Below are positions 24,222-43,342 of a stretch of DNA of 43,348 bases, one piece after another (position 1 is the first letter of the stretch; every line of letters begins with the position of its first letter). The DNA lies in the NCBI GenBank assembly GCA_031268855.1, contig JAIRWS010000045.1:1-43348 (forward strand), given 5' to 3'. The DNA is from Candidatus Margulisiibacteriota bacterium. Lineage in GTDB: Bacteria > Margulisbacteria > Termititenacia > Termititenacales > Termititenacaceae. The notes beneath the pieces are model-generated. The model saw only the letters and a program-made list of their open reading frames with translations, had not been told where the DNA came from and did not search any database. The position numbers and the translations under genes are program-made.

Positions 24222-24480
24222 AGTTTTGCCTCCTTTCATAACTTCGTTCGTAATTTTGCTAAATATTCGTCTTACCTCCTCTCAAATAGTTGTGAGTTTT
24301 TCATGCTAACATTTCAGATACAAAATTAGCAATACGGGGATTACTTTTGAGTAAGTTCCCTTGCCTCGGAAAGCCAGGATTTATTAACAGGGCAATAGGA
24401 TTATCAATATATAATGGGTTTTTATTCAGGATACACCGGGTCTGCTGGCGCAAGCCCGGCGTATTTAAACTGCGCGCACG

Positions 24481-24855
24481 TTATTGCCAGATTTCGTAAA
24501 GCGAATAATCCAGCTTTGATCTAATTCTTTTGCCCTGCGGGTCCAGCAGACGCAGCTCCTGGCTGCTGCGCGTCTCATACAAAGAATCGCCGATCTGCAA
24601 AACATTTTTGCGGACATAGACGAGCCGGCCCTGGGTCACGGTTGGAACTTTTTGCTTATTGACAAACTTGGCGCTCAAAGTATATTCGCCGTTTTTAATG
24701 TTGAGCGTCGTGGCAATGCCGCTGTCGTCCGCCGCCGGCAACACGCCGAAAAACACACCCACAGCATCCTGCTCAAGATTTTTGGCAAAATCCGCTTTGC
24801 AGCCCGTCAAAAAAACCAAAGCTAGAAGACAAAACAAAACCTTTCGTATAAACAT
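24481..24855 (-). CDS. lipoprotein with an NlpE-N-terminal-like domain (CXXC replaced)
   Basis: Start ATG 24855, 6 nt after AAGGAGGTG. Lipobox MFIRKVLFCLLALVFLTG|C. FFGVLPAADDSGIATTLNIKNGEYTL parallels the NlpE Y.G.LPCADC.GI...L.L motif. Confidence 0.65.
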   Translation of the reverse strand: MFIRKVLFCLLALVFLTGCKADFAKNLEQDAVGVFFGVLPAADDSGIATTLNIKNGEYTLSAKFVNKQKVPTVTQGRLVYVRKNVLQIGDSLYETRSSQELRLLDPQGKRIRSKLDYSLYEIWQ

Positions 24856-24882
24856 AAGAAGCACCTCCTTTCCAGTCTAAGT

Positions 24883-24912
24883 ATTATAACTCTTGGGAGG
24901 AGGGAATTACAA
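24883..24912 (-). promoter_or_regulatory. candidate sigma-70 promoter for the lipoprotein gene (-35 TTGTAA, 18-nt spacer, -10 TATAAT)
   Basis: Read on the minus strand: ttgtaa-ttccctcctcccaagagt-tataat, about 28 nt upstream of the ATG at 24855. Confidence 0.35.
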
Positions 24913-24985
24913 ATCAGCTGCCGCCCACCGGCCCGTCGCTGGCGCTTAACCTCTTCGGCAGGGAGAAACAAAGAAATATTTTGTT

Positions 24986-26044: not shown

Positions 26045-26122
26045 ACCTGGTACCTCTACAAAGATATCGTCGGTTTTTAAGAAAAGTTGCGGGCTTTTCT
26101 TGGGGTATTCTTTAGTATTCTT

Positions 26123-28462
26123 TTAAGAATAGGCTTCAATCAAAGCCTCGAGAAAATCGCGGTCTATCGTCCACTGCAGCATAAATTCAGCAGGGCGCAG
26201 ATCTTGATTGACGCGCCAGACGGCCTGCGAGGTATTCCAGTCCATGTAGCCGCGCTTGAGCGGGATGAAAACTTCCAGCAAAGCGTCATTCTCCAGTGGA
26301 GAAAACTCCACACTTTTGATCTTTTCCGCTAATTTGCGGCCGTCCAGAAAAGTGATCGTTTGTAGCAACTCTTCCACCATCGGTTTGGCCGCCGGATATT
26401 TGCCGTTGACACACAAAATATCGATCTCTGGATACATTTCGGACTCCAATTGATCGCGCAGGGATTCCAGCTCATTTTTGATATATTGTTTACGCTCCTC
26501 GGTACCGGCTTCGGGATTATAATACTCGCCGATCAGCATGCCGGACTTGATCGAGCCGTAGCCGCTTTTGAGGAGCATTTCCTGCAAAGCCGCGATAAAG
26601 GGGTCTTTTTCACCGTCATAACTGATCGATATCTCATAGGGTTTGTTATGCATAATTTCCGTAAATCTGGCCTGTACTTTTTCCTGCACGGTTTCCGGCA
26701 TTTTCATCGCCGAGCAGGCCACGCGCACTGCCGCCGCGCTGTCCACTTCCGGCAAAAGCTGTATCAGCCCGATTTCTCTGGCACGGTCTACAATGTATTT
26801 CCGCAGAGAGTTTTTATATTTTTCTTCCTGACCTTTGGTAATTACTTTAAGTATCATTTGTTCCAGCGCAGAGGCTTCTTCATCTTGAGCCGCGCGAAAC
26901 TGTTCCCAGCCAGTTTTGGAAAACTGCTTAAGATAGGCCACAATATTGATCCAAAACGGAGGATATAGATACAGCTCTTCCAGCGGCTTAGCGTTTCTAC
27001 TATTCTGGTAAAGTTTATATACTTCTTTTTCTAGCATCTTATAGTTCGCTTTATGAATACCAATCTCATACACGGCTGTATAGATAATATTTAAAAGCTT
27101 AGTCAATAAAGCTTTGTATCTTTTCTGCAAGAAAGCGTAAATTTGATCTTTTTCTCTGCCTAACCGTTCAAAATCTACGGAACCATCTGTTTTAATAAAA
27201 TACAGAGCTAAACCTACTAACACATTACTCATCAAGCTCATAAACTCTTCTGTTTCATCAACAAACCAATTATCGGATATATAGACATATAAATCCCGTG
27301 AAGCTCGTTGAGTGTCCTTATCAGCTAATTCTGCAAAACGGGTAAACGCGCCCTTACGTGCGTCCCGCGCCGGCGCCCAATCCGCCAAGGCCTCAATTAA
27401 AACAGTGCCCACTCCTTCTCCCTCTGGAAAATTATTCCGAAAAGCATTATGAATCGGCTCCATATCTATAAAAGACACATGGTGCCCCATCTCGTGCCAG
27501 AGTATTCCGTCAATCATTTCCTCAATAAATAGTTCTTTAATATTCAGTACATCTGCAGTTTTCCGCGCACCGTAAAAAGTTAATGCTTTTTCTTTAATAC
27601 CTTCGCGCAGCGCGGAATTCACATGATGCAGCGCGTGTTTGCGTTCGGCTTTGGACTGGTCAAAGAATTTCTGCCATTTGTTAAAGAAGATAACCTCGCA
27701 GGCCTCACGGCGAATCATAGTTATATCTTTATAAACCTCTGCCGCCACGGACAAAACAAACTGTGGAGAACGGATATATTCTTTTTGGATGATACAAGCT
27801 TTATTTCCTAGTAAATCTTTCTCGTCTACTTCGCCAAAAATGTAACGCAGGCCGTATGGCCTGCTATGGGTATAAAACAAATAATAATCAACATCCAGCA
27901 AATCCAGAAAATCATTGATATAAGCAAAATCAATATTCGGATATTTACGGCCAAAAATATCCAATGCGTATTCTTTACGAACATAATTTAAATAAGCGTC
28001 GCCCGATTTACTGCCCTGCCGTTTGTCGCATTCGTCTAAGATTCTGCGGAAACGATCGGCATCAAATTGTGTGACCTCACGGTTATTGGGAATATTCAAA
28101 ATATTCCGGCAAAAAGAAATGGAAACTCTTTGCTCCCCCATAGGGCCAAAGTCTTTGCGTTTGTCCATGGATAAATAAATCAGCAAGGCTAGCTCTTTTA
28201 ACTCCCGGTAAAGATATTCTTTGACAAATTCTCGAATAGAATGAAGTTCTTCTGCTTGTTTATCGGGTTGTTTAATTCTTTTAGCAACCAGTTTCGTTAA
28301 TTGTCTATCTTCTAAAGAACGCGCGTCATCCTGAAGCGCGGCGCCGTATTTGACGCTAAACTGCTCATGCAGTTTTTTTAACTCGTTATCCGTCGATTTG
28401 CTGTATATAGATATTTCCACTAAGAACCCCTGAGTAATTTTAACACATTTAAATTTAAACAA
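26123..28462 (-). CDS. HExxH zinc-metallopeptidase-like protein (gluzincin/MA-clan pattern), 779 aa; start possibly GTG 28420
   Basis: ILWHEMGHHV (HEMGHH = 27479..27496) followed 29 residues after the second zinc-ligand His (H327) by LIEALADWAP (third-ligand Glu pattern). No signal peptide. The TTG at 28462 lies inside the T-tract of the upstream terminator, whereas GTG 28420 has AGGGG 6 nt upstream. Confidence 0.65.
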   Translation of the reverse strand: MFKFKCVKITQGFLVEISIYSKSTDNELKKLHEQFSVKYGAALQDDARSLEDRQLTKLVAKRIKQPDKQAEELHSIREFVKEYLYRELKELALLIYLSMDKRKDFGPMGEQRVSISFCRNILNIPNNREVTQFDADRFRRILDECDKRQGSKSGDAYLNYVRKEYALDIFGRKYPNIDFAYINDFLDLLDVDYYLFYTHSRPYGLRYIFGEVDEKDLLGNKACIIQKEYIRSPQFVLSVAAEVYKDITMIRREACEVIFFNKWQKFFDQSKAERKHALHHVNSALREGIKEKALTFYGARKTADVLNIKELFIEEMIDGILWHEMGHHVSFIDMEPIHNAFRNNFPEGEGVGTVLIEALADWAPARDARKGAFTRFAELADKDTQRASRDLYVYISDNWFVDETEEFMSLMSNVLVGLALYFIKTDGSVDFERLGREKDQIYAFLQKRYKALLTKLLNIIYTAVYEIGIHKANYKMLEKEVYKLYQNSRNAKPLEELYLYPPFWINIVAYLKQFSKTGWEQFRAAQDEEASALEQMILKVITKGQEEKYKNSLRKYIVDRAREIGLIQLLPEVDSAAAVRVACSAMKMPETVQEKVQARFTEIMHNKPYEISISYDGEKDPFIAALQEMLLKSGYGSIKSGMLIGEYYNPEAGTEERKQYIKNELESLRDQLESEMYPEIDILCVNGKYPAAKPMVEELLQTITFLDGRKLAEKIKSVEFSPLENDALLEVFIPLKRGYMDWNTSQAVWRVNQDLRPAEFMLQWTIDRDFLEALIEAYS

Positions 28463-28492
28463 AAGAAAGGGTGTCTTAAAAAGACACCCTTT
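28457..28492 (-). terminator. Rho-independent terminator/attenuator between the 181-aa gene and the HExxH gene
   Basis: On the minus strand there is a 12-bp perfect stem (aaagggtgtctt / aagacacccttt, 28466..28492) with a 3-nt loop, followed by cttttgttt. It is preceded by a T8 run. Confidence 0.6.
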
Positions 28493-28520
28493 AAAAAAAA
28501 GCCCTTAAACTTCTACAAAA

Positions 28521-29066
28521 TCAGTTAGGGTCTGCAACAGTACCTGCTGCGTCAGTCTCCACCTTATCTGCCATTGCCGCGGCGCTTGCAACATGGGCTT
28601 CTAAATCAACGCCAGCGAGCGGGTTGACGGCTGTTTCGTTGCGGACTTCTTGGGTAGCAACGGCTTCGCCGCTGGTAACCCTAAAACCACTACTACGGGT
28701 AGCAACCGCTCTTTCAGCCTCTATAAATCCCGCTTGCTCACGCCATGTTTTTACTGTATCAGCAGACGGAATCGGATCGCCAACACCTATAATCACATTA
28801 TAGTTTTTCAGCGCGACTAGTCCAAAACGTCCTAACTCTGTGTTATTGAGCATGCCATCTTGATTAACCAAGCTGCTAACATCCTTGCCTTCTTTTTCTA
28901 AAGCATCTAACAAAGCGATTACCTTAGCTTGGTTCTCAGTTGCCAGCGCTACTTGACCAAGAACATTCAACGCGTTAGCCGCAATTCCAACATTCGCGCT
29001 TATCCGGGCAAACGAAGCAAACCTCGCTGCCACATCTAAAAATTTTACAAATCCTTCTATTGCCAT
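28521..29066 (-). CDS. hypothetical protein (181 aa): helical N-terminal half and Ala/Thr/Val-rich C-terminal half
   Basis: Strong SD (AAGGAG 8 nt before the ATG), 140 nt downstream of the giant ORF stop. No signal peptide or recognisable motif. Confidence 0.6.
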   Translation of the reverse strand: MAIEGFVKFLDVAARFASFARISANVGIAANALNVLGQVALATENQAKVIALLDALEKEGKDVSSLVNQDGMLNNTELGRFGLVALKNYNVIIGVGDPIPSADTVKTWREQAGFIEAERAVATRSSGFRVTSGEAVATQEVRNETAVNPLAGVDLEAHVASAAAMADKVETDAAGTVADPN

Positions 29067-29206
29067 GATCTTTCTCCTTTATTTTTTATTTTTATTCTAA
29101 AACAAAATATATTGACTAACTAAAGTACTTCACCTCCGTTTAAATTAAAAATACTTTTTTTATCTTCATAATTATATCGTAAGTAACTCAAAATTGTTTC
29201 ATTTTT

Positions 29207-32200
29207 TTAGCTCTGGCCAGCGGGCAGTTTTAAGGCTTGTCCGGGGTGTATTATATAAGGTTCGCTAATATTATTAAGGCGAGCTATATCCTGCCAGCGC
29301 AAGCCAAACTTCTGGCCAATCCTAGACAGATTATCGCCGCTAACCACTGTGTACGTTTCCGGTCTTTCGATCGAAACCACAGTACGTACCCCATCTACAT
29401 AAAGCAGCAGATTATCCAAAAGCGTCTGGAGATAATCGGCGCAAGCAGACTGCTCTTCTTTGCCCGAATTTCGTAAACCAGCAACGGTCTGCTCTAAATG
29501 CCGTTTATTTGGATCGACAAAACGCATCCTAGAACTCACACAAGTTTGCACAAACTGGCGGGCAGGTTCGCCCATAGTTAAAAGCAAAGTCTGCATCAGC
29601 AGTGGCGAACGGATAACCAGAGACTCTATTTTCCAACGATAAGCCGGATTATCCACATATACCGCATAAAGACTGCCGGCCAGCTCTTGCACAGCTTCTG
29701 CGGATAGGCTGTCTGTTTTTTGTAGCAGCCAGCTTATAGACAATCCATAATCATCTCTATGTGCCATGATTTCATTTACGGTCGCTATATTGTTCAACAC
29801 CAAAAAGGCATCAAAGTCCTCTTCATGATAAGGAAATCGATTTTCATTGCGTTGTGCTATTGTCAAACGATTAAATTGTAAATTATTCCTGCTCGGCTTT
29901 TTGCCTTCCGCGAGCATAACCACACACTCAGCTAGCTGCCCGCTAAAAGATGTCCCTATTATTGTTCTCACAATATCAGCTTTATTAGCAGAAACTAAAT
30001 CAAACTGCTGAATTTGCCGCAAAATGCCGACTAGCTGCAGTGTATCCACAGCCGCCGTTCCGCAAACTGTATTTATGGCGCTAACTAAATCTTTATAAGC
30101 CAAATACACTTTTGTTATATCAGGCGGCTGGCCGAGATCTGTATAACCCAATCCTTTAAGCATATCTATTGTTTCGTTGGTATGCATTGCGGCATAATTT
30201 TTCTGAAAATATTGATAATCCAGCAAAACGTTTATGACCTCTGCGGCTTCCGCGTTTTCTGGTATCAAGCGCAGGGCAATCATCTGGCTGCGAATTTTAT
30301 TATAGTTATTGAGATCAGCCTGCCCGGGATTAAAAGAAGTTTCTTCCAGCGTAAACCGGCTGGCTATTGGGGTTTGGTTTCTGAGAAATTGAAAAGCAGA
30401 CCTGATTAACTCTTTGTTTTGCTGTTCTCCGGCATCATTTGCGAAACCCATGACAGAAAGCAAATAGTCTGAATCCGAATAAATATTGTTTAATAAATCT
30501 TTAGTCGTGTTAAATTTAGCAGATCTGCTCAAAACTGCCGACTGTTCTGCAGGAATCACACTACCGTTTAACGGCTCTTTAGCTCTGGCCGCAGCCTGCG
30601 CCGGAGTATCCGCTTGTTTCACTTCTATCGCGGCTTGATTGAGTATTCGAGGCGGAAGCATATCCAATGGAATATAAACAGGCTGATTAGACTGCAATAC
30701 GCTATCTATATTTAACCCATTTGTGTACAAAAATACATTTATTATTTCCGCTCTCTGCTCTTCCGGTACAGAAAAACCTCTCAAAAACAATTGCTCAATA
30801 TAATTCACCGCTTTCATTCCAGCCTGCTCTGGACTGACCATGCATCTTACTGAATAGCTGCGCAGAGTCCCTATCCTGTTTATATCATTAATCATTGCCC
30901 TATTAAGTATCGTGTTATCAATAAAATATTCCGTTGACATATTGACGCCGCCGCTCAGCCGCGCGGCAAAACCAATCTCACCATTTAGATATTTACGTAT
31001 ATTTTCCCTTTGAGCCGCTTTGTTAGCGCCGCTCCAATGAATAATTAAGGCAGAAATTATTTCTAGCATTTTCTTAGCTTCTGTTCTTCTTTTAGTTTCT
31101 TCATCGTTAAATTTCGCCAATTCATTCCTGTCAGCGGCAATTTCCGGCGGAGGAGTCGGCAGAGCAGAGTTAGCGAAAGCTGTCCAGGCATCTCTGCGGC
31201 TGGTGTTGCCGTCAATACATTCCAGCGCAATCAAAGTGCTCTCCATAAACAGCGCGGCGTTATCCGAGCCAGCTCTGGACAAACTCCAGTTGTCGCCAAG
31301 CTCGGCCATAGCCTGTGTATCCGTTGCCACAGAAAAAGTTCCCGACTGGCTCAATCTAAAATCAAAAAACTCTTGCAGCCGCTGGTTTGGATCGAGTCCT
31401 AATACATCCAATCCGTAAGAAACGTTTGTTCCCAAAAAGCCCACTGGCAAACGGCCAACTAAAATATTTCCAAAAAAATCCGCCAGCTCTCTTTGAGACA
31501 AGGGCGGATTAGCGCGAAGTTTTTCATCTGTTTGTTTTCTAATTTCCGCTAAAATAGCGTCGTTAGCATAGGACCTGCTATTGATTGTCGGGGATTGACT
31601 TCTTTCCAGAATCGCCCACGTCATAAAGCTATTAAACAATTCATTATTCGCGGCAAAAAGACCTACAGGCTGCTCTGTCCGTAGCAAATCCTTCATCGTC
31701 GGTTTTTGATTGGTAGAATTTAGTGGGTCAAGAGTATGCGGAATTTGCACTCTAGCACAACGCAATGTATTGGCGTCTACCGTAACGCCATATTTTGCCA
31801 TATTTCTAATAAATGCCGCATCGCTCGGCGCTTCAGTCCTGCCATGTGGGACCAGTTTTAACCACGCGGACCTGGCATAATCTCGGCCAATACCAGGAAT
31901 GATATTGGTCAGAAAATACCGATATTCATTTTTAGTTAAACTAGCAAAAGGGCGCACGGACTCCGAGCTGCCAGCTACTGTATCTGTTAAAAATCCTGCG
32001 CTGCCGACAGCTAATTGCGGATATTTAGCGCCAAAAAGCCGCATGGCATTGGACATTACAAATTCAAAAAATTTGGCTTTGCTCTGGACGCCTTCTGTTC
32101 CGGTGGTGACCACAGCATTGTCGCCGTCCTGCCCAAACATAGTAAGAGTGCCGACCAAATTCACCGTATCGCTGATTATCGGAACAGTATTATAAAAATT

Positions 32201-35200
32201 CCGCTGCGCATTTATATCGCCGCTACGCAAGGCGGCTATAAAATCTTCCCACATAGCGTCAAATGTTTCTTTGTCTGTCCAGCTTCTGACCACAAACCCT
32301 TCAACTATTTCCTGACGCTGGATATTTGGCACCATAGCGCACAAAGTTTCTCGTATGTCCGCCAAAAAACCCATATCCTCAAACCATCTGGCCACTTCAA
32401 ATTGCATCGGACGGACACCTTTAGAATATTTGATATCAAAAAACCTCCGCATCGTCATGGAACGATCCAGCGAGGCATAAATATTAGCCTGCATATCTTT
32501 TTCTAATGTGCGCGGCGCAAAAGCAGCCTCGGCAGAGCTGGCCAGCCAATTACCAACTTGCAGTCCCATCATAATCTGTCCGGCTACAGGCAATACTTTG
32601 CCGGTGTAACCCAGCAGTTTTGGCACAGTGTAAGTCAAGGAACGTATCAGCACCACACCGCTGGCAGTATGCATGGCATTGCGTGTTACTGTCGTTTTAA
32701 AGTTTAAAGAATCAAAATTACGATTGACCTCCTCCAGCGTTAAGGCTGGCGGCGGGGCAATGCCAAGCTCTTGATTTCTTGTTCTTTCTTCATCTATATC
32801 TTTAAAAGCTTTATTTCTGTTGGGTTCAAAATAAACTTTATCCATCACATAACCCAGTCCCATTACTGCTCCAACACCAGCAAAAGACCGCAAAAGGGAT
32901 ACAAGTTTCATCACGCCTTTGGACAACGGAGAAGGAATAATAGCCGACATTATCATACCGGGTATTTCAAAAGCCAGATTGGCAAGGCCTTCCGACATAC
33001 AGGCTAATGACAGCTCCGCCTGAAATTTCATTTGTTCATAGGGATCAGTGCTGGCTGCTCTAGCCAGACATTCTGGATTATTGATCGCTTTCAGCGGACC
33101 TTCCATAAAATAACCGCCCAGGAACAAAGCCGGAAAAGCAACCGCCAGATAACTGGCATAGCCTTTAGCATTTTTTCCCAGCGATTCTTTGAGGATTTTT
33201 AATTTGCCGCTCTCCTTATCCCGGAAAAGCAGCGCGCCTAATTCTGCCGGTTTTACAATGGCGTTCCCACCCAGCAAGTGATTGACCACGCTCAAAGAAA
33301 TATCCGTAGCCAGATCATCGCGGATAGAACACATAACACCGAAACCAGTATTGTCCGGTATACCGATCAGCCAGTTCGCCACACGCCGTTCAAACTCTCC
33401 TTCTTCAAGAGAAGAATTCCCCGCCCATTCTCCATTTGGCCTGATAAACGTGTTAAATGCCGACAGCGCTAATCCCAATATAAAAGCGCCTTGCGCGGCA
33501 TCGATGCGTCCCACAGCTTTGCTATAAAACTGACCCAATTTTCCCCTAAGATCCGGGCTCAATCTATCCAAATGCCGCTCTGCTATTTCTCTATGCAGGC
33601 GTTCGTATTCATCTTTCGCCGCCTGCAGATCACTAGCATATTTGTCCTTGACCGCCTGGCCGGCTGTTTCAGCTGGTTTATTGTTCTCCAGCAAGGTAAT
33701 CCTTTCCAGTAGCAAAGCCATAGCGGGAGATAAAACCGCTTGATTTAAACTTCTCAATGTTTCCGCATCGCTGGCATTGACATCTCTAATCAAGTTCCGA
33801 ATCTGATTCGTAACATCTTCTATTTCAGGATTTACACCTGCTGTTCTTTGACCAGGAACTTCTACGCGCAATATTTCCGCCGTGTCAGGGCGAATTTCTA
33901 CATTCAGCGGCCCCACAACATCAATGGCTGTCCGTCCTGCCAAAAGAAAATCGCTGGGATCATTTGATTTAGCATAGTTCGTCTCCAGCGTAATTAATTT
34001 CCAGCCGTCCGCCGCTCTGTAAAGAACATCCATGCGTCCATTAGTGATGTCCACTTCGCTGGCGCTTTCTCCGCCCGGGTGAATATGCGCTAAACGTCCG
34101 CCTATGGCATCGGCTATATTTTTGAACGCAGGTAGCGCCACACAGCTGTCTTTCCACTCTAAAGCCTGCAAGTCTTTAATAGCTGCATCGCTCAAATTTC
34201 TAAAAAGAGCGTCCACTCTCTCACCATAAAAGCCAATAATTGTGGTTTTTACCGCCTCAGCCGGATGCTCGGCGGCCTGCGCGGCTCTAAGCGTAGTATA
34301 TAGATCGGCCATTGTTCTGCCTTGAGGGAAATCAATTTCTCCAAGTTTCAATACTTTGCTGGCTTCCGGCTCGATAACGCGTTCTAATTGTTTATTTTTG
34401 TCATAAATCAAAATTACCGGAAGCTCTGTATTAGGATTTTTACGCGCTATTCCGTCCAGCTGAGAATTTCTGGCAGGAGGAACATCAGCCGGATTTGACG
34501 CGGCATTTCTATTAACATCCGCCGTATCCACATTGTTATACGCCCGCCAGGCTTCTTCTTCTGAAGAAAATCTCAGCTCGCGCCCATCCGCCGTGCTTAA
34601 AACGAAAACATCCCGATACTGCCTGCTTGCGACACGATCTCCCAAACGGCGCATACCGGCCGGAATAGGATTATCTTGCCTGCCGTGCACAGTCAAATTT
34701 CCATCGAAATTATATTTAGTAGTTCTTTGACCGCGTCGCACTCCCAACGCGCCAGCTTCTTTATTACCAATCAAATTATGATAAAAGGCGTTTAGAATTT
34801 CTTGACAATTACGCAAATACAGATCGAGAGCTGAGAGAGACCGCGCGTCTTGTTCGGCGCCTGATTCGTCCCCGGCAATACGGCTGGTTCCTCTTTCCTG
34901 CCGAAGTTTCAAGTAATTATCGCCCGCTTCTTCCAGCGCCGCTATATAGGCCCGCACATTGGCTCCGGTAACGCCCAGCGTGCCCAGATGGTCTAATCCT
35001 TCTCTAGGAACAATGTAACCATGCGCGTCAAAATATTTACTATTCACAAAATTTATATACTCATTATAAGACACCGGTATTTTTTCCGCGCCGAGTTTCA
35101 GATCTAACAATCTGGCTGTCTCCATCCGCAAAAAAGCTTCCCGGGGATTTACGCTTTCATTAAAAATATTTTTAGCCCTGGCCAGCATCTCCGCAGGAAT

Positions 35201-38200
35201 AGCTTTACCGAATTTAGCCGAATAGGCTTCGCTGACTATCCGGCCAAATTCTTCCGCCGAAGCAGGCATTTTATCCAGCGGCAAATCCAGACGAGTTAAA
35301 TCGCGCAGTTCGGATTGAAGATAGCTTTCTCTGGTAACTGTGGAGCTTTGTTCATAAATTCCTTTGCTCAACATTTCACGGATATCCTGCAAGCCCCTGT
35401 CCGCCGTAAAAGAATTATTTAACATACTAGCCATTCTGCGGACGATTTCTTGTCGTTCAATAACCTGCCGTGTCATTTCATCAGGCTGTATATTATTGAT
35501 TCCACTTTGATTGATATGGCTCATTGCTGCTCTGGCGATTGAAGACACCAAGCCAAGCTCTGTTCTGCTCCAAAGATGCTGCAAAGCCGCGACTTCGTCC
35601 GCAGTTAAACGTTGTCCGTCCGGCACAGACGGCGCGCTCATCTTGGCCAGCTCAGTTTGGAATTTCTCTACAAACTCATATTTTGCATCATTCGGCGCGG
35701 CGCCATCCATAAAAAGGTCGCTGATTTTTTCCCATTGCATATTTCCGCCGGTGTATGTCTTTATGGTGTCACGCAGAGCCGTAGAATCAACTTCTGCCGT
35801 ATAGCGGTCTCCATTGCGCGGCTTCGGCAACACGTCAGGCGAAATACCAACTCTTTTATAAAGGTCATCTGTAATACTCGACAAAACATAAACGCTGCCT
35901 CCGGCTGAAGCGCGGTCTACACGGTTCAAAGCTTGAATATAATCCGCCAATCCGCCAGCCGGTTTTTCATACATAATCATATCAAAGGCTTTTATCTCAA
36001 AAGTTTCCGTCTTACTTAGATCTCTCTGTCCAAACTCTTGAGCGTTTAGTTTTGACAATCCTTCTTGTTCGGCGCCGTCTCTTACCATTTCCAGACCGGC
36101 CAGCGATTCGGCCAGTTTTAGCTTGGCCTCCGCATCTTTAGTTTTATTATATTCACTCCGCGTATCAGCTATTAGCTTGTTTATGGTTTCTACGAGTGTC
36201 AGCGTTGAATTTCTGGGATTAGCCAGCACATCCTTTACTAATTGCGCCGCTTCGTTATAACTTTTGGCCGGAGACCAATCCACGCCTCTGCCGCCTAGAT
36301 TGGTCATCAACACAATCGCGCCCGCTTGTCTGGTCTTTCTAACTATAGCGCGCAGGGTTTTTGGATCTGCATCATGATCATATATGTATATTCCGTTCTT
36401 CTCTAATGTTTCTAGACCTTTCTGACTTATTTCTTCTATTCCTTTTTTATTTTTGGTTATTGCCTCCGGGCAAATCATTCTGACAATTTCAATTATTTTT
36501 TTCGGATCGGGACAATATACACCCATTGAATTAGCGTTAGTTGCCGTTCTATAAGTATTAATTAGTCTCTGAAATTCTGCATCTCTAGCCTCTCTTGTGG
36601 CAAAAACTTCATCATAAACATCCATTCGCGCTTCGGCGATTTTATTTACAGCCACTACATTTTTGTTATAAGGATCGTATGATGCGCCCGTTATTGACGC
36701 CGTGCCGGAAGCTCCAGCAAAATTTCCGTTAGAACTAATATAACGCAGCATAGTACTGACCAGCATAGAATCAGAATCCGACCGTGACACCACAAACAAA
36801 CCAGCTTTATCAATTAAGTTCGGGTGTCCATCTGGGGCCAGTTCTCTGGCTTCCAGCGCGCCCTGTAGTCCGCCGAAAAATTCAAAACCCCACTCGCGGT
36901 TGTACCGGCTGCCGAAATTTGCTTCATCGGTATACTTGCTCAATAATACTATGCCAGTCTGGCGGGTCTGTTGGTCAACATCAACTTTATAATCTGTGCC
37001 GTAACGCATATCATTGCGCACGCGCAAACTATGCACCAGCTGGGTTTCCACCAGAAAACGAAATTCCTCCATAGATAAAGCTGTTATGCCTTTTTTAGCG
37101 TTATATTTACCCAGCACTTTAGTGTCCAGCTCATTAGCCTTAATAAGCTCCGGCAAACGATTAGTAACAAAATCCGCCCATTTAGTAGCGTCCTCGACTT
37201 CCAAACGTCCGGCTAAATTAAGTTTTAGACCGCACTCGTTTAATTTTAAACCCTGCACAATCTTATCAATAGTAGTGCAGAAAAGGGCTTGCAAGGCAGA
37301 CGGTTTGCCGGAAATTTGCGATATTTTGTAAGGAGTCATCGCTTGTTTGGCGGTCAACACATCTATCTCATCGACAGAGAAGAACAATTTACTCATATCG
37401 CCAAAAACAGTTTTTAGTCCCATCAGTTCCGCGCTGCGGTCGGACAGCAGTTGAAAACCCAGAGAACGGTTTGACATATAGACAAAATCGCTTTTGGCAA
37501 AGGCATCCGCAGCATTGGCGGCGTTTCTATTGTCAAAATTAAAATGCTGAACCTTTACATCATAGCCAAGCATAACCTTAAAATAACCGCCGTGCTTCAG
37601 CACATCAGCTCTGCCATCTGACGCTAAAATCTCGCTGGATGTAACGATAATTGCTTTCTGGCCGGAGAAAATTTTTAACATGCCAGCCATCTGCAAAATA
37701 ATTGTCTTGCCTTCGCCGCAGGGAGCGTCCAAAATCTTGCCGTTGTTGATAACCAGCATACCAAGCGTCTGCATATTATTGACCCTGAATCCTATTTCAG
37801 ATCCCACTAAAATACCTGCTGGGTTTTTACCGGGACCGGCTTTATACATAATGTAATCGTCTAACGTGCGGGAAGGATTTTTGGCAAAAAACTCGTCCAT
37901 GTCGCTTATATCTACTTTAAATCTACTCCGCAGATCCACCGTGCCGTTCCTGTTTTTACTCCATTCAGCATTTAGATCAGAACGCCAGTAAGCCTCTCTA
38001 GACAACGCGATAAATTCCGCAATGCGCACCTGATCAGCAGGGTCATTAAAATCCGGAGGCCTCCGGCCGATCTCTGTTCTAATTCGCTCTACTGCGTCTA
38101 ATAACTCGCCGTTATTCATTTTGGCAAAACCAGGAACGACTCTTTCCTGCGTAACACCATTTATCTCATAAGTAATTCGCCCGCCCAGTTCATATACACC

Positions 38201-41200
38201 CACATTTCTGTTGGTTTGCGCATATTCTGACTTCTCTAATTGATAACGGTTTAGATTGGATTGAAAAGTTTCCATAACATTGAAAGTGCTAAGCGCGTCC
38301 CCTGAAAAATCCAGAACGCGCGTAGAATTTGTCTGCTGAAATTCCAAATTGGCCGGACGCAAGTAAGTTTCTATGGCCTGCCCTTTTATCACTTCAAAAA
38401 TTTCTTGCAGCTCTTTAGGAAAACCCTGCAAAACTCCAGAATCGTTCATCGACACCACATAATGCTTCCCGCCAAAATCAAAATGTAACCCTGGTTTTGT
38501 TGCCGCCGACGCGCCACCGTGAATGATCTTAACGTCGCTGGCTCCCTTGTTCTTTAAATTTGTAACAAAAGCCATCGTTGTGGTCGGAGCGGATTCAGTC
38601 AAAGCTCTAATATAGGAATCTGTTACCGCTCTCTGCAAATCAATCTGTGGGTCAGTTTTAATCTGTTTATCCAACCCATCAAAGAAAAGCCTGGCTCTTA
38701 TCGGATTAGTGTCGCCGCCCAAATCGTTATACACTTTTTGCCAATCATATTTGGCTTCTGTCAGGGCAGCGCGCGCCTGTTCTGGTGGCTCATAAACCGC
38801 TGGCTGCTTTGGAAAAAAATTCTCCACTCTTGCAGCAGCTTCATTAACAACTGTCTGCGCGCGCATAGTGTCATTGGTTTGAACAGCCTCGATAAAATCT
38901 CGTCCCATAACCAGGTTTAAAGCCGAAGTATCTGCATTGGGCAAACCAGAGGAGGCCCGCCATTCAAATATCGTCCGTCCCAGAGAAGGATCTATTTCTA
39001 TCGAGGATAATAAAGCTGTGCGGCCATTTTCTTCCACCTGCCAGAGACCGCCTTCGACTTTTTTGAAACGCGCGTCGCCTGAATTTTCCAGATACGCCGG
39101 TAGCATCTCGCCGAATAATTGCAGTGTGACTTCGTTTCCTGCCAGACGGTAAGCGTCAGTATTCCGGAGGAGCTCTGCCGCGGTGCTTTTTTCCGCGTCA
39201 TCAAGATTGGTTTCTGCATATTGATATAGGTCATTTAATGTCTTGATCTGTTCCAAGCCCAGACGGCTGCTATAATTATCTCCCAAACGGTTTTTCACGC
39301 CGCTTATTACATCCCTTATATTCACTTCTATATTGGTATAAAATTTTCCAGTGGCTGGATTTTGCGAAAAAGACACCCGTCCAGGCGTTTCCAGCACAGG
39401 CAGACTTTGATAACGCCCGCGCGGGTTAACTACAGCTGCATTGACTGTCTTATTAGACAAACGAAATGGCACATAGAAAGCAGCTAAAAAATTCCTGCCG
39501 ATTGCATGAAGTCCATATTTCACAACACTCAGTTTATATTTCCAGTTGGGAATGCTGGAGCCGTCCGGTGCCAATGTAGAGGGCATAGGGATTGGATTTT
39601 TAGACTCTACCGTATAAGACCTTCTAAAAAGTCTGCCGATAAGCGGTATTTGCGCAAGCAAGCGATGCTGCGGGCGAAGCTGCGTATAGGCTCCGTCCGT
39701 AAAGGCTTCAGTATTGCCATTGAGGCTATTCACAATTTCCCGTGAGGCGGCGGCCAGTCCTTCCGGCGTTTTTAACCAATTTCGGCGTTCTCTATTAGCA
39801 AAAATCCCATAGTTATTTCTTGTTTTGACCAATAGATACTCTAAATCAACATTGCCGTACAAACCTTTTAGATAATTACCAATGATGGTTTTAGCCGCTC
39901 CCATGCTTCTGGCTTCCACTTCAATATCGCGGCCGTCAACCATAAAAACAAATTTGCTGTTTTTGCCAACTACCGGAAGCGATTTTAGAACTATAGCACT
40001 GCGCTGAATGGAACTAGCCGTTATTTTTGTAAGCATATTTATATAAAAAACCGCGAATACATAATTGGAAATCGCGTCGGCAAGACCAGCTCCAATTGCT
40101 CCATTCTGAAACTCTTGCCTCGTCTCCATTGTCATCATGACAAACATATCGGGCGCATTCCAGGGCAAAAGCATACTCAAGGTATTCATAATTGTATTGA
40201 ACGCTTCCTCGCGCTTAGCCGGATCTCCTGATTGCAGTATCTCCAAAGCCGATTTCAAAATGCCAGCCATTGCGGCAAAAGGTGATGCTAAATTTGACAA
40301 TGACGTTAATCCGAAATCTTTAAGATGATTCCTATCATTTTGAACTAATTTAACTTTCTGCGCCGACTGATCAGAAATATATTCATGTACTTCCAGATTT
40401 GAAACGCCAAGCTCGTCAGCTAGATAAATACCAGGAGTCCGAGAAGCATCTGCGCGTTTTGCCAAATAATTTATATACTCCGCATATTCTTCATCGCCGG
40501 CCGTGCCGGCGGCTATAGCAAACATTGTATCGGCTGACTGCACTGGATAAAATTCGGTGAAAAAACTTTCCAGCCATTTAGCTTGAGCGTTTTGTTTTAT
40601 CCAAGCATCCTCATCTTGTATAAGTTGTTCTTTTTCCCCATCATATCGTCCCTCGAAATCAATTTGAGCGGCATTCCACGCTTTAGCTCGCGTCTCATGT
40701 GCCTCTCCTTCTTTTATATAGTGTGCGCTTTCCTCTCTATACCTGTCTCTGTCCAGTAATAATTTTCGTATCATCTCAAAAAACTCTTCACAAGCAAAAC
40801 CATAAGATTCTTTAGCCTCTAATTCAGCATCACTTACAAATTTGTCATCTAGAGAAATTTTCTCGTCATCTATAATAATGTCATCCAGAATTCGATATCC
40901 TCCGCGTTCTTTATCATAGATAAAAAAATTATAAAAATCGGCCAACGCTTTAGCCCCATCGGCAATGCCATACCTATCCTCAATATCAGCCACAACATCC
41001 GGGCTTTGTTCCCTTATCTGCGCCGTGAGCATATTGTAATAATAGTCATAACTGTCCGTTCCAATTGGTGGTAAAACTTTTATTGGTTCGGGCACTTCCA
41101 ATGTAAAAGGTTCTGGCTTATCATTTATATGGGCTTGGTACTCTTCGCTATTGACTAAATCAGTTGGCGTAGCTTCTCCTGTGTAAACAAAATCAGTCGG

Positions 41201-43342
41201 TATTCCCATGTTTTCCAACAGGAGCTTAATAGTAAGCGCATATTTAGTTAGTCCGCCTGGATTATTGACATCCTTAATATTATTGGCTGTTATAAAAAGT
41301 CCCAATGCTATCTGCGCATTCTGGCTGCCGGGATTATAAAGAGCCTCGTTTTCGGCGGCCGTACGCAGAACGTACAATTGTTTATAAAAGTCCAGATCAA
41401 ATCCTGGCACTCCGCGCATTCTGGCTTCCACAGAGGCGACATCCATGTTAAATTGCCTTTCGTTTCCGGGCGCATTTTCCTCTGTATCTATCAGCAATAT
41501 GCCTTCCGAGAATCTAATCATTCCCATCTCGACAATAGCTGTTTGGTCGTCTTCAACTTTAATACTTACCGATGTCCATTCCTTCCAGGCTATTTGTTTC
41601 AAAACCTGTTTTTGTTCATCAGTAAGTTTTCCGTTGTCCCAAATATCCGAACCCAAATCAGCGGGTTCCGGCAAATGGTAATTGCTCTGCACAGCAAGAA
41701 CATCCATTTTCAAATTATCGTCAGCTAATTCACCTTTTGTCGCCAGATATTCACACAAATAGGCTTTGAATAAAGTCAGCGGGCGCGGATCTGTGGTCTT
41801 GCCCAAATGACCGGTCGAAAAATCTGTTCCGGCAAAGTATTTATCATATACAAATTGAGTTAAGGCGTATAAATACCCTCTGGTTTTTTTTAATTGAGAG
41901 TACTTTTCATTCTCAAATAATTCCCGATCCTCCGTCGAAAAAGCTTTCTCTAACGCTGTGTAATCAAAAACAGGCTTGGCCGTATTACCGACTGTTTTAA
42001 AATCATTCCAGAATTTACTATCCTGCGGTTCGCCTAATATTGCTTGAAAAAACAATCCGTCTATTTTGGGTTCATAGACAGTACTCCTAGCTGTTTCAGA
42101 TAAAGCACTGACTGTATTTTCAGTTTGCCGCAAACCTGGAATATTCGGGAGATCAGCCGACGAGGAATGTAGTGTGGAATATTTTAATCCGAGAAGTCTG
42201 AACTCTGAATTATTTATCATACTTAGATTGCGCAGATAAACCCATTGCCTTACAACAATCTCCTGTTTCCGCAGAACATCCATTGCTTCAACTATTTCCT
42301 GCGGATATGAACCGTCTGCCGCAGGATAAATATTAAAACCATTGGTGTGATAATTTTGTCCTGGTTCGCTTTTTAAGTAATTACTGGCCGCTTCCAATTT
42401 TGCCCGCTCTTCAGCAGAAAATGTATTTGCGTAAGCTGCGCCATTTAATAAAGTGTCCAAAAATACTGTGGAGATGGAATCATTGCCTATTTCTGTCAGC
42501 ACTACCGTTTTAGCCTCTTCACTCGTCGCATTGCGGTATACTTCCGCCAAAATTAAACCTTTGAGATAAACCAACGGATATTTTTGATAAAGTTCAGGCG
42601 GAGCAACTACCATTTCAGACAAAACACTCATAGTTGCTTCATGGCTGTAACCAACATCCAGCACTTTTCCTTGAGAACTTCTTATTATTGCTGGATTTTG
42701 CCTCGTTACTACAATCATCCCTTCCGGCAGCTCCGCTAAACTTTCCACAAAAGCCCGAACAACTTCCGGCGTAACCTGCGCGTAAACAAACGCTTCTTTG
42801 ATATAATCACTGTTGCTAACAAAAGCTTCAGCAAAATCCCGCAGCAGCCGGATAGTGCTAATATCCCTGTCTCCGGCTAAAAACCTTACAGCGGCTTTAT
42901 CTTCAGCGCCGACAGCATCGCTCGGACGGCTGGCTCCCTGATTGTGGCTGGTTTCCATTGCTTCCGCCATACCCAAAATATACTTCTGCACGTTGGACAG
43001 ACTTTCATTAAGTAGAGCAAAAATCTCGTCATTGATTTTATCCAAACCGACGTTTTGAATATTTTTACCGTTGGCGGTTAATAATTCCTGCGCAAACCAA
43101 ACAAGCTCCGCATTATGAAAATCATTTTTCTGCAATAAAGCTCTTACTAAAATTGCGTTTTCCAAGGGACTAATTTCTTGACCATTATTAAGTTTGGCAA
43201 CAATTTGCGCTTGCACAACAGAGCCGGATAACAACGTATTTAAAACTCGTTCATATCTGGGCTTTTCTGCGGCAGAGATTTTGCCGTCATTAGCAAATCC
43301 ATTTATAGTTAAATCATACCGCGGCACCCTCAAATCTGACAT
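29207..43342 (-). CDS. giant multidomain protein (at least 4711 aa) with an internal SecA-like ATPase motor, a hydrophobic segment cluster and a C-terminal LysM domain
   Basis: Uninterrupted 14.1-kb ORF. The 6 nt between the ATG at 43342 and the window edge contain no stop, so the N-terminus may lie outside the window. SecA-like motifs occur at aa ~1840-2499, and LysM at aa 4664-4707 (YTVVSGDNLSRIGQKFGLRWQDIARLNNISEPYIIHPGQALKLP). Confidence 0.9.
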   Translation of the reverse strand: MSDLRVPRYDLTINGFANDGKISAAEKPRYERVLNTLLSGSVVQAQIVAKLNNGQEISPLENAILVRALLQKNDFHNAELVWFAQELLTANGKNIQNVGLDKINDEIFALLNESLSNVQKYILGMAEAMETSHNQGASRPSDAVGAEDKAAVRFLAGDRDISTIRLLRDFAEAFVSNSDYIKEAFVYAQVTPEVVRAFVESLAELPEGMIVVTRQNPAIIRSSQGKVLDVGYSHEATMSVLSEMVVAPPELYQKYPLVYLKGLILAEVYRNATSEEAKTVVLTEIGNDSISTVFLDTLLNGAAYANTFSAEERAKLEAASNYLKSEPGQNYHTNGFNIYPAADGSYPQEIVEAMDVLRKQEIVVRQWVYLRNLSMINNSEFRLLGLKYSTLHSSSADLPNIPGLRQTENTVSALSETARSTVYEPKIDGLFFQAILGEPQDSKFWNDFKTVGNTAKPVFDYTALEKAFSTEDRELFENEKYSQLKKTRGYLYALTQFVYDKYFAGTDFSTGHLGKTTDPRPLTLFKAYLCEYLATKGELADDNLKMDVLAVQSNYHLPEPADLGSDIWDNGKLTDEQKQVLKQIAWKEWTSVSIKVEDDQTAIVEMGMIRFSEGILLIDTEENAPGNERQFNMDVASVEARMRGVPGFDLDFYKQLYVLRTAAENEALYNPGSQNAQIALGLFITANNIKDVNNPGGLTKYALTIKLLLENMGIPTDFVYTGEATPTDLVNSEEYQAHINDKPEPFTLEVPEPIKVLPPIGTDSYDYYYNMLTAQIREQSPDVVADIEDRYGIADGAKALADFYNFFIYDKERGGYRILDDIIIDDEKISLDDKFVSDAELEAKESYGFACEEFFEMIRKLLLDRDRYREESAHYIKEGEAHETRAKAWNAAQIDFEGRYDGEKEQLIQDEDAWIKQNAQAKWLESFFTEFYPVQSADTMFAIAAGTAGDEEYAEYINYLAKRADASRTPGIYLADELGVSNLEVHEYISDQSAQKVKLVQNDRNHLKDFGLTSLSNLASPFAAMAGILKSALEILQSGDPAKREEAFNTIMNTLSMLLPWNAPDMFVMMTMETRQEFQNGAIGAGLADAISNYVFAVFYINMLTKITASSIQRSAIVLKSLPVVGKNSKFVFMVDGRDIEVEARSMGAAKTIIGNYLKGLYGNVDLEYLLVKTRNNYGIFANRERRNWLKTPEGLAAASREIVNSLNGNTEAFTDGAYTQLRPQHRLLAQIPLIGRLFRRSYTVESKNPIPMPSTLAPDGSSIPNWKYKLSVVKYGLHAIGRNFLAAFYVPFRLSNKTVNAAVVNPRGRYQSLPVLETPGRVSFSQNPATGKFYTNIEVNIRDVISGVKNRLGDNYSSRLGLEQIKTLNDLYQYAETNLDDAEKSTAAELLRNTDAYRLAGNEVTLQLFGEMLPAYLENSGDARFKKVEGGLWQVEENGRTALLSSIEIDPSLGRTIFEWRASSGLPNADTSALNLVMGRDFIEAVQTNDTMRAQTVVNEAAARVENFFPKQPAVYEPPEQARAALTEAKYDWQKVYNDLGGDTNPIRARLFFDGLDKQIKTDPQIDLQRAVTDSYIRALTESAPTTTMAFVTNLKNKGASDVKIIHGGASAATKPGLHFDFGGKHYVVSMNDSGVLQGFPKELQEIFEVIKGQAIETYLRPANLEFQQTNSTRVLDFSGDALSTFNVMETFQSNLNRYQLEKSEYAQTNRNVGVYELGGRITYEINGVTQERVVPGFAKMNNGELLDAVERIRTEIGRRPPDFNDPADQVRIAEFIALSREAYWRSDLNAEWSKNRNGTVDLRSRFKVDISDMDEFFAKNPSRTLDDYIMYKAGPGKNPAGILVGSEIGFRVNNMQTLGMLVINNGKILDAPCGEGKTIILQMAGMLKIFSGQKAIIVTSSEILASDGRADVLKHGGYFKVMLGYDVKVQHFNFDNRNAANAADAFAKSDFVYMSNRSLGFQLLSDRSAELMGLKTVFGDMSKLFFSVDEIDVLTAKQAMTPYKISQISGKPSALQALFCTTIDKIVQGLKLNECGLKLNLAGRLEVEDATKWADFVTNRLPELIKANELDTKVLGKYNAKKGITALSMEEFRFLVETQLVHSLRVRNDMRYGTDYKVDVDQQTRQTGIVLLSKYTDEANFGSRYNREWGFEFFGGLQGALEARELAPDGHPNLIDKAGLFVVSRSDSDSMLVSTMLRYISSNGNFAGASGTASITGASYDPYNKNVVAVNKIAEARMDVYDEVFATREARDAEFQRLINTYRTATNANSMGVYCPDPKKIIEIVRMICPEAITKNKKGIEEISQKGLETLEKNGIYIYDHDADPKTLRAIVRKTRQAGAIVLMTNLGGRGVDWSPAKSYNEAAQLVKDVLANPRNSTLTLVETINKLIADTRSEYNKTKDAEAKLKLAESLAGLEMVRDGAEQEGLSKLNAQEFGQRDLSKTETFEIKAFDMIMYEKPAGGLADYIQALNRVDRASAGGSVYVLSSITDDLYKRVGISPDVLPKPRNGDRYTAEVDSTALRDTIKTYTGGNMQWEKISDLFMDGAAPNDAKYEFVEKFQTELAKMSAPSVPDGQRLTADEVAALQHLWSRTELGLVSSIARAAMSHINQSGINNIQPDEMTRQVIERQEIVRRMASMLNNSFTADRGLQDIREMLSKGIYEQSSTVTRESYLQSELRDLTRLDLPLDKMPASAEEFGRIVSEAYSAKFGKAIPAEMLARAKNIFNESVNPREAFLRMETARLLDLKLGAEKIPVSYNEYINFVNSKYFDAHGYIVPREGLDHLGTLGVTGANVRAYIAALEEAGDNYLKLRQERGTSRIAGDESGAEQDARSLSALDLYLRNCQEILNAFYHNLIGNKEAGALGVRRGQRTTKYNFDGNLTVHGRQDNPIPAGMRRLGDRVASRQYRDVFVLSTADGRELRFSSEEEAWRAYNNVDTADVNRNAASNPADVPPARNSQLDGIARKNPNTELPVILIYDKNKQLERVIEPEASKVLKLGEIDFPQGRTMADLYTTLRAAQAAEHPAEAVKTTIIGFYGERVDALFRNLSDAAIKDLQALEWKDSCVALPAFKNIADAIGGRLAHIHPGGESASEVDITNGRMDVLYRAADGWKLITLETNYAKSNDPSDFLLAGRTAIDVVGPLNVEIRPDTAEILRVEVPGQRTAGVNPEIEDVTNQIRNLIRDVNASDAETLRSLNQAVLSPAMALLLERITLLENNKPAETAGQAVKDKYASDLQAAKDEYERLHREIAERHLDRLSPDLRGKLGQFYSKAVGRIDAAQGAFILGLALSAFNTFIRPNGEWAGNSSLEEGEFERRVANWLIGIPDNTGFGVMCSIRDDLATDISLSVVNHLLGGNAIVKPAELGALLFRDKESGKLKILKESLGKNAKGYASYLAVAFPALFLGGYFMEGPLKAINNPECLARAASTDPYEQMKFQAELSLACMSEGLANLAFEIPGMIMSAIIPSPLSKGVMKLVSLLRSFAGVGAVMGLGYVMDKVYFEPNRNKAFKDIDEERTRNQELGIAPPPALTLEEVNRNFDSLNFKTTVTRNAMHTASGVVLIRSLTYTVPKLLGYTGKVLPVAGQIMMGLQVGNWLASSAEAAFAPRTLEKDMQANIYASLDRSMTMRRFFDIKYSKGVRPMQFEVARWFEDMGFLADIRETLCAMVPNIQRQEIVEGFVVRSWTDKETFDAMWEDFIAALRSGDINAQRNFYNTVPIISDTVNLVGTLTMFGQDGDNAVVTTGTEGVQSKAKFFEFVMSNAMRLFGAKYPQLAVGSAGFLTDTVAGSSESVRPFASLTKNEYRYFLTNIIPGIGRDYARSAWLKLVPHGRTEAPSDAAFIRNMAKYGVTVDANTLRCARVQIPHTLDPLNSTNQKPTMKDLLRTEQPVGLFAANNELFNSFMTWAILERSQSPTINSRSYANDAILAEIRKQTDEKLRANPPLSQRELADFFGNILVGRLPVGFLGTNVSYGLDVLGLDPNQRLQEFFDFRLSQSGTFSVATDTQAMAELGDNWSLSRAGSDNAALFMESTLIALECIDGNTSRRDAWTAFANSALPTPPPEIAADRNELAKFNDEETKRRTEAKKMLEIISALIIHWSGANKAAQRENIRKYLNGEIGFAARLSGGVNMSTEYFIDNTILNRAMINDINRIGTLRSYSVRCMVSPEQAGMKAVNYIEQLFLRGFSVPEEQRAEIINVFLYTNGLNIDSVLQSNQPVYIPLDMLPPRILNQAAIEVKQADTPAQAAARAKEPLNGSVIPAEQSAVLSRSAKFNTTKDLLNNIYSDSDYLLSVMGFANDAGEQQNKELIRSAFQFLRNQTPIASRFTLEETSFNPGQADLNNYNKIRSQMIALRLIPENAEAAEVINVLLDYQYFQKNYAAMHTNETIDMLKGLGYTDLGQPPDITKVYLAYKDLVSAINTVCGTAAVDTLQLVGILRQIQQFDLVSANKADIVRTIIGTSFSGQLAECVVMLAEGKKPSRNNLQFNRLTIAQRNENRFPYHEEDFDAFLVLNNIATVNEIMAHRDDYGLSISWLLQKTDSLSAEAVQELAGSLYAVYVDNPAYRWKIESLVIRSPLLMQTLLLTMGEPARQFVQTCVSSRMRFVDPNKRHLEQTVAGLRNSGKEEQSACADYLQTLLDNLLLYVDGVRTVVSIERPETYTVVSGDNLSRIGQKFGLRWQDIARLNNISEPYIIHPGQALKLPAGQS

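Follow-up and report, generated by a model that had tools for sequence, protein, structure and literature searches.

Giant proteins with many predicted transmembrane (TM) helices have been described in Omnitrophota and Actinobacteriota; their SecA DEAD and preprotein-binding domains are divergent, and the scaffold and wing domains of SecA are missing. The proposal made for them was that the TM regions adjacent to the motor anchor it and that the motor exports the giant itself, with the caution that TM predictions differed between tools (West-Roberts et al. 2023, bioRxiv 10.1101/2023.11.21.568195). A 2026 catalogue of Omnitrophota reported TM helices or signal peptides in 94% of 916 long proteins, "TM-only" being the commonest class (bioRxiv 10.64898/2026.06.07.730766). 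The question of how signal-less giant bacterial proteins are placed in or across membranes, and what role their embedded SecA-like motors play, was raised on Omnitrophota giants of 30-150 kaa (thousands of amino acids), which are impractical to handle. Here we describe a compact version of such a protein from a Candidatus Margulisiibacteriota bacterium (assembly GCA_031268855.1). The window analyzed takes in the whole of contig JAIRWS010000045.1 (43,348 nucleotides), from a genome of 1.55 Mb that is 96% complete, and the open reading frame (ORF) at 29207..43342 on its minus strand encodes a protein of 4,711 aa that consists of a variable N-terminal third, a SecA-like ATPase, a hydrophobic helical module, a conserved C-terminal arm and a LysM domain. 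The hydrophobic segments between the ATPase and the LysM domain are the apolar parts of a helical module of ~340 aa that is specific to a small family of giant Margulisbacteria proteins, and we tentatively favor the view that this is a family-specific membrane-association module made of marginal Gly/Ala-rich helices.

The window protein resembles the Omnitrophota and Actinobacteriota giants in that (i) it is the product of a very long ORF mostly without recognisable domains, (ii) it contains an embedded divergent SecA DEAD-like motor, with a canonical SecA encoded elsewhere in the genome, and (iii) hydrophobic or predicted TM regions lie beside the motor and cell-wall-related domains are present. 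It differs from the Omnitrophota giants in belonging to the Margulisiibacteriota (the Ca. Termititenax lineage) and in size, 4.7 kaa as opposed to 10-147 kaa; published giant sets hold proteins of at least 10,000 aa, up to more than 30,000 aa, and both the window protein and its relatives fall below that class. Furthermore, its module has no sequence kinship to their TM region, being found in only about 10 proteins in 1.84 billion representatives, and forms one compact cluster of marginal helices whereas theirs are "numerous" TM helices. The cell-wall module is here a C-terminal LysM domain, and the gene stands in a conserved cassette with genes for proteins of 140-181 aa and 779 aa. The original prediction, which had deduced a membrane-spanning topology from the hydrophobic cluster, regarded membrane insertion at the cluster, or export of the whole C-terminal part, as unusual for a SecA-like protein; that was overstated, since giants with SecA_DEAD beside predicted TM regions have been published (bioRxiv 10.1101/2023.11.21.568195; 10.64898/2026.06.07.730766). 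The logic of a motor joined to TM regions is already in the literature for another phylum, and what differs in the present case is the lineage (termite-gut Margulisbacteria), the small size, the unique module, the LysM domain and the cassette.

A similar chain order is known from proteins of the ExeA/GspA type, in which a cytoplasmic ATPase is followed by a membrane span and a periplasmic peptidoglycan-binding domain; ExeA itself belongs to the AAA+ proteins, is small, and combines one clear TM helix with a PG_binding_1 domain. The succession of ATPase, hydrophobic region and C-terminal peptidoglycan-binding domain is common to both, and it is the logic that the original prediction had followed. 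The window protein departs from ExeA in its SecA-like motor, in its hydrophobic module of 340 aa with several marginally hydrophobic helices, and in the ~1,050 aa that lie between this module and the LysM domain; homology was not detected.

Residue numbers given below refer to the translation from window base 43348 (P0001), so that numbers counted from the initiator Met at 43342 are lower by 2, and all features of the protein and of the genes downstream lie on the minus strand. Judging by the N-terminus MSDLRVP, with which the Ca. T. aidoneus homologue likewise opens, the start at 43342 is the genuine one. The first 60 aa contain no hydrophobic segment, in keeping with the absence of an N-terminal signal peptide that had been predicted. 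In the whole protein, Pfam matches were confined to SecA_DEAD (PF07517, 60 bits against a cut-off of 24.6; aa 1851-2118, 36995..37798), which marks the nucleotide-binding domain of the embedded motor, and to the peptidoglycan-binding LysM domain (PF01476, 53.1 bits against a gathering cut-off of 20.9; aa 4666-4709, 29222..29353), with which the protein ends as predicted. The ATPase motifs GxGKT, DEID and GGRGxD are retained in a seven-sequence consensus of the family, and the canonical SecA is encoded separately in an 820-aa frame on contig C129 (424 bits).

The five hydrophobic peptides that had been quoted for the region between these two domains were all found in the minus-strand translation of 29207..43348, at most 12 nt from the positions originally given. 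They lie within the all-helical module, which extends over aa 3280-3620 (32489..33511). The description of the cluster as hydrophobic and glycine-rich was borne out as well: aa 3286-3605 contain 9.7% Gly, against 6.5% in the whole protein, and the mean hydropathy of this stretch ranks 12th of 4,394 windows of 320 aa, with the maximum at aa 3287. Four of the eight peaks of Kyte-Doolittle hydropathy (KD19) of at least 1.3 in the whole protein fall within the 340 aa of the module, against an expectation of 0.58 for its length, and nothing else between motor and LysM domain is TM-like.

The segments, which we number S1 to S5, are not equivalent. S1 (GAFILGLALSAFNTFI; aa 3287-3302, 33443..33490) has a KD19 of 1.50 and an insertion energy (dG, in kcal/mol) of +1.26; its uncharged run extends over just 0-19 aa among the homologues and its flanks are charge-neutral. 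S2 was quoted as a core (YLAVAFPALFLGGYF; aa 3400-3414, 33107..33151) that can be extended (YASYLAVAFPALFLGGYFM; aa 3397-3415, 33104..33160; dG +0.54), and is followed by a conserved [E/D]-G of which the Gly is invariant; among all segments it is the strongest candidate for a TM helix. S3 (IPGMIMSAIIPSPL; aa 3462-3475, 32924..32965; dG +3.3) is preceded by the conserved Glu of FE(I/V)P and contains 2-4 prolines when homologues are compared. S4 (FAGVGAVMGLGYVM; aa 3489-3502, 32843..32884) carries the GVGAV motif with an invariant Gly, and its dG is +1.09 for aa 3482-3506. S5 (VLPVAGQIMMGLQVGNWLASS; aa 3585-3605, 32534..32596) has a mean Kyte-Doolittle hydropathy of 0.96 and a dG of +3.6, and in most homologues a Glu or Asp lies inside it. 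One further segment, absent from the original list, is S4b (ASGVVLIRSLTYTVPKL; aa 3562-3578, 32615..32665; dG +2.9), with an Arg in mid-segment, which is the weakly hydrophobic C-terminal end of a helix predicted for aa 3538-3578.

When 1.84 billion representative proteins were searched exhaustively by phmmer with aa 2950-4149 as query, only 10 proteins matched, and all matches examined are giant relatives of the Ca. Termititenax type or from related Margulisiibacteriota. A search with a seven-sequence profile added a single protein, P0012. In a sample of 61 genomes of the phylum, the window's own genome apart, clear matches (E <= 1e-19) came from only three others of its family (Ca. Termititenax aidoneus, Ca. 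T. persephonae and one Margulisiibacteriota metagenome-assembled genome), and one weak match came from another family (E 0.008, 14.6 bits). A word-indexed homologue search with aa 3150-3750 returned nothing beyond the protein itself, two metagenome scans with degenerate peptide patterns yielded no relative, and the module had no match in Pfam, NCBIfam, PHROGs or a PDB sequence-profile search. It is a conserved domain without a relative in Pfam, PDB or BFVD.

Among the four full-length proteins, identity is ~34-38% over aa 3280-3800, one of the best-conserved parts, and 12-30% for the greater part of the chain; the identity of the ATPase block exceeds that of the module against L009 alone. Only L3408, G3412, G3417 and G3491 are invariant in the nine-sequence alignment (A1), and the motifs GAFxxGLxMS, NTGFGxxCSxRD, LFxxGxxx[ED]G, DPY[DE]Q, EGxxNxxFE(I/V)P and GVGAV are common to most sequences. 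The conserved Cys and Arg-Asp of NTGFGxxCSxRD made us consider a catalytic domain; this was rejected, as both are missing in P0009 and the Cys is missing in P0010, which keeps the Arg-Asp. With these residues not universal and the invariant positions being only Leu and Gly, a catalytic role of the module is unlikely.

No homologue lacks the module, and it invariably follows the ATPase and precedes LysM, where the latter is present, as seen in P0009, P0010 and P0012; the general layout of the family is that of a SecA-like ATPase, the module, a conserved arm of ~1,000 aa and LysM. A C-terminal LysM domain was found in seven of the nine proteins with known C-terminus, that is, the window protein and six relatives: L013, P0006, P0010 (twice), P0011, P0012 and P0009, whose LysM-like C-terminus was judged by eye. 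It is absent at the C-terminus of P0003 and P0004. The relatives are 4,750-5,300 aa long, against 4,711 aa for the window protein, and the chain consists of motor, one marginal module and, in most members, a peptidoglycan-binding tip; one 2.4-kaa relative is perhaps a fragment. This is P0012, in whose 2,434 aa the motor occupies aa 35-1156, the module starts at aa 1446 and LysM takes up aa 2388-2430. Its gene, at 24..7328 of L024 (JGI 3300042652, contig Ga0466708_080816), opens directly with the SecA-like motor, so that P0012 may represent the family in minimal form or come from a gene that has lost its N-terminal part; its frame is open to the contig start, and for this reason it may be a fragment. 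A fragment from the Ca. T. aidoneus genome (G001:C125) shares 71% identity with P0012, which implies at least two paralogues in that genome.

The insertion energies were obtained with a position-dependent scan of the Hessa-2007 type. The controls, all from the window, gave seven segments in a 7TM-HD protein, four in CNNM, four in the A24 peptidase, one in each protein with a signal peptide or anchor, and none in eight soluble enzymes (minimum 1.6-4.3); the minimum of the membrane-protein controls was between -3.9 and -1.2. The three lowest energies of the giant protein are all in the cluster, S2 at +0.54, S4 at +1.09 and S1 at +1.26 kcal/mol; they overlap with the weakest true TM helices of the controls (0.85-1.24) and lie below every in-window soluble enzyme. 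S2 is the lowest segment of the module in six of the eight homologues scanned (-0.37 to +1.6), the exceptions being P0009, in which S4 is lower, and P0012, in which S1 is lower, and its dG falls below zero in two homologues (-0.37 and -0.19). Outside the module, one N-terminal locus alone had a dG of 1.6 or less in the scanned homologues. The apolar character of S2 persists through sequence drift, with substitutions almost wholly apolar or small in sequences 21-35% identical to the window protein; the same holds in part for S1 and S4 and fails for S3 and S5, which have conserved or frequent acidic residues. The hydrophobic moments of the cores are low, 0.09-0.19, indicating that they have no polar face.

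The charges flanking the segments were counted as totals of K/R and D/E over nine homologues. For S2 they amount to 19 K/R and 5 D/E on the N-terminal side and 13 and 22 on the C-terminal side; for S3, to 2 and 15 before and 16 and 0 after; for S4, to 14 and 0 before and 17 and 17 after; and for S5, to 10 and 0 before and 8 and 18 after. The S3-S4 loop is basic and has an acidic residue in none of the nine sequences. This alternation of charges fits the positive-inside rule for an N-in/C-out orientation and is compatible with membrane insertion, though not specific to it.

From these features we infer membrane insertion, a number of crossings and a role for the motor, along the following lines. 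S2 would cross the cytoplasmic membrane in an N-in/C-out orientation, possibly together with a hairpin formed by S3 and S4; the first ~3,390 residues, including the SecA-like ATPase, would remain cytoplasmic, and the last ~1,100-1,300 residues, with the LysM domain at the tip, would reach the periplasmic peptidoglycan. No helix of the module is hydrophobic enough for unaided insertion, and insertion would thus need help, plausibly from the protein's own SecA-type motor with SecYEG or YidC. Three genes for TolC-like outer-membrane proteins were found in the genome, which is therefore probably diderm, the peptidoglycan then being periplasmic. The membrane-spanning topology originally predicted is partly supported: the position of the lowest insertion energies, the conserved order, the alternating charges and the recurrence of LysM argue in its favor, and unmet classical thresholds, uniformly positive energies and short cores argue against.

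Several results weigh against a membrane crossing. First, classical thresholds for a TM helix (about 18-20 or more apolar residues, with a KD19 of at least 1.6, an Eisenberg <H>21 of at least 0.68 or a dG_app of 0 or less) are reached by none of the five segments, whose best values are a KD19 of 1.50, an <H>21 of 0.62 and a dG of +0.54, and no "initiator" with an <H>21 of at least 0.68 exists in the giant protein. For comparison, the KD19 maximum of in-window controls was 2.1-2.8 in membrane proteins and 1.1-1.84 in soluble enzymes, and the <H>21 maximum 0.77-0.89 and 0.42-0.58, respectively. Second, all insertion energies of the window protein are positive (+0.5 to +3.6 kcal/mol for the segments), simple Hessa sums give +4 or more, and the parameters of the scan itself were validated solely on the in-window controls. 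Third, S3, S4b and S5 (+2.9 to +3.6) are poor TM candidates with a conserved Glu or Arg and several prolines, and the uncharged runs through the segments mostly measure 11-20 aa in the nine homologues, often 11-16 aa. In addition, the AlphaFold2 model described below places all helices, S2 included, in one bundle, as would also suit a soluble domain.

A second hydrophobic locus, the only other TM-like one of the family, points in the same direction. This segment (aa 1089-1111, 40016..40084) has a dG of +2.46 in the window protein, aligns with equivalent segments in two of the three other full-length homologues and is of TM grade in relatives (-1.0 in Ca. T. aidoneus and -0.77 in P0009). Its distance from the N-terminus is ~1,000-1,430 aa across the family. 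As it precedes the ATPase, it cannot be reconciled with a simple N-in topology: as a simple TM helix it would put either the ATPase or a signal-less N-terminus of 1,000 aa outside the cell. The hydrophobic segments of this family hence need not be ordinary TM helices. The segments of the module are borderline hydrophobic and, as far as the sequence goes, could belong to a membrane crossing or to an unusually greasy soluble core.

A soluble helical bundle, in which the segments would be Gly/Ala-rich core helices or an interface (with the protein's own domains, with the 181- and 779-aa partners or with itself) and no TM helix would exist, appears to us somewhat unlikely, though it survives better than the remaining explanations. 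The protein would then be cytoplasmic or released whole, and LysM would act only after release. The classical hydropathy of the segments is within the range of enzymes encoded in the window (an aminotransferase with KD19 1.84 and <H> 0.58; SerA with 1.47 and 0.57), the apolar cores are short and broken by conserved Glu, Arg or Pro, and the invariant residues, glycines and a leucine, are typical of close helix packing; the charge alternation could equally mean a bundle with one basic and one acidic end. The AlphaFold2 model of aa 3275-3640, computed from five sequences, is a single compact all-helical domain (predicted local distance difference test, pLDDT, 68.6; predicted TM-score, pTM, 0.67) with helices of 30-52 aa, of which the apolar parts are just the ends or middles. 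At this medium confidence, the modelling that had been recommended for the region returns an all-helical bundle that fits membrane and soluble core alike. An earlier model of aa 3225-3775 from four sequences had a pLDDT of 52.8, too poor for use, and its Foldseek matches are meaningless.

The scan of the genome, on the other hand, speaks against a soluble bundle. A strong TM helix is missing from 1,093 ORFs with a length of 200 aa or above. Segments with a dG of 1.3 or less occur three or more times within 250 aa in just five of these, one being the giant gene, and three of the other four resemble spurious antisense frames; no real soluble ORF of the genome has a comparable cluster of segments at +1.3 kcal/mol or less. 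The remaining, largely helical parts of the giants are likewise free of such segments save for the one N-terminal locus, the cores have no polar face, and the access of LysM to peptidoglycan would be unexplained, though LysM is kept in most relatives. Should the segments belong to a soluble core after all, this would show that marginal segments can give rise to TM calls in giant proteins. The last of the other four ORFs with such a cluster, apparently real, is an unannotated 636-aa frame on the minus strand of contig C8 (G000) with three marginal segments (dG 0.05-1.3), and may encode another marginally hydrophobic membrane protein.

Membrane association through the module, which we prefer, has a more specific form, namely a cis-acting autotransporter of the inner membrane in which the motor engages SecYEG and threads its own C-terminal LysM arm of ~1,100-1,300 aa into the periplasm. 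S2, with basic residues before it and acidic ones after it, from the conserved [E/D]-G on, would serve as an internal signal-anchor, and the giant N-terminal part would stay anchored with the motor on the cytoplasmic face. We consider this improbable at present. If true, it would amount to a self-contained export of signal-less giants and offer a small model for those of Omnitrophota.

Ca. Termititenax lives attached to spirochaetes on termite-gut protists, and a peptidoglycan-binding giant protein could act there in cell-cell attachment. In the same setting the module could be a conditional membrane-insertion or pore module of an exported or partner-directed protein, with its helices shielded when made: LysM would dock on the target peptidoglycan and the helices would then enter the membrane, in the style of an alpha-pore-forming toxin or of a phage ejection or tape-measure protein, the partner cell being the ectosymbiotic spirochaete. 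Marginal hydrophobicity and Gly/Ala-rich helices are typical of segments that insert post-translationally, and the fast evolution of the giant (~25-35% identity) would suit an exposed or conflict-facing protein. The best Foldseek neighbours of the better model, none of them significant, belong to the tripartite toxins of the ClyA family (SmhB, AhlB, MakA) in their pore and pre-pore forms; like these, the module is an elongated bundle whose long helices are moderately hydrophobic at their ends. The best PDB match was the SmhB pore (7a0g; E 0.044, probability 0.54, TM-score 0.16, root-mean-square deviation ~40 angstroms), AhlB, MakA and assorted transporters came next, and the best BFVD match had an E of 0.19 (TM-scores below 0.26). 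With no match at E <= 0.001 in PDB or BFVD and TM-scores of ~0.16, structural similarity is not established. The module further differs from the ClyA family, whose matches are non-significant (E >= 0.044), in the absence of sequence similarity and in being internal to a 4,711-aa ATPase-bearing protein, where the toxins are free and secreted. Insertion tip-first would call for apolar or acidic hairpin loops, and those of the module are basic; the ATPase would be useless outside the cytoplasm. No secretion signal is present, the type VI secretion system (T6SS) sheath gene was not found and phage genes are absent nearby. Taken together, these points make a pore module unlikely.

A phage or T6SS context was rejected separately, there being no phage families near the giant gene and no sheath gene (TssC) in the 96%-complete genome; PHROG matches were confined to the ATPase and LysM, which together with the best BFVD E of 0.19 also led us to discard a phage tape-measure or ejection protein.

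That the cluster is a compositional accident without a specific role in a very long, fast-evolving ORF can hardly be credited: although the clustering does not stand out when residues are shuffled (four peaks within 340 aa were reached in 105 of 300 shuffles, an uninformative result since shuffles exceed the native sequence in hydrophobic peaks), few parts of the family are conserved as well as the module (34-38% identity), which has invariant glycines and the motifs NTGFGxxCSxRD, DPY[DE]Q and GVGAV. In all relatives, moreover, it comes after the motor and, where there is a C-terminal LysM, ahead of that domain.

Downstream of the giant gene, three co-conserved genes occupy 24986..29066 and encode proteins of 181 aa (28521..29066), 779 aa (26123..28462) and 352 aa (24986..26044). 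No signal peptide or TM helix was detected in any of the three (minimum dG 3.55, 1.44 and 2.04, respectively), and they have no Pfam or PDB match; the lack of export signals in these neighbours would fit a cytoplasmic N-terminal part of the giant. All four related loci have the 779-aa gene, at 73-77% identity, downstream of the giant gene, and the small gene of 140-181 aa, only ~26% identical between loci, always lies between the two. Between the same genomes PGK is 80-86% identical and the 779-aa gene 73-77%, whereas the giant reaches only ~25-35%, and from this comparison it evolves unusually fast.

The G+C content drops from about 52-55% in the housekeeping part of the window (pgk, serA, gap) to 40-47% across the four-gene cassette (24000..43348), which suggests an island or a distinct codon usage. 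At 10409..16384 and 18386..18856, both on the minus strand, we also found genes for an AMIN-domain amidase, a T2SS-T3SS_pil_N protein, several single-anchor proteins and an A24 prepilin peptidase; taken together they resemble an envelope cluster related to pili or secretins, and 8-19 kb separate them from the giant gene.

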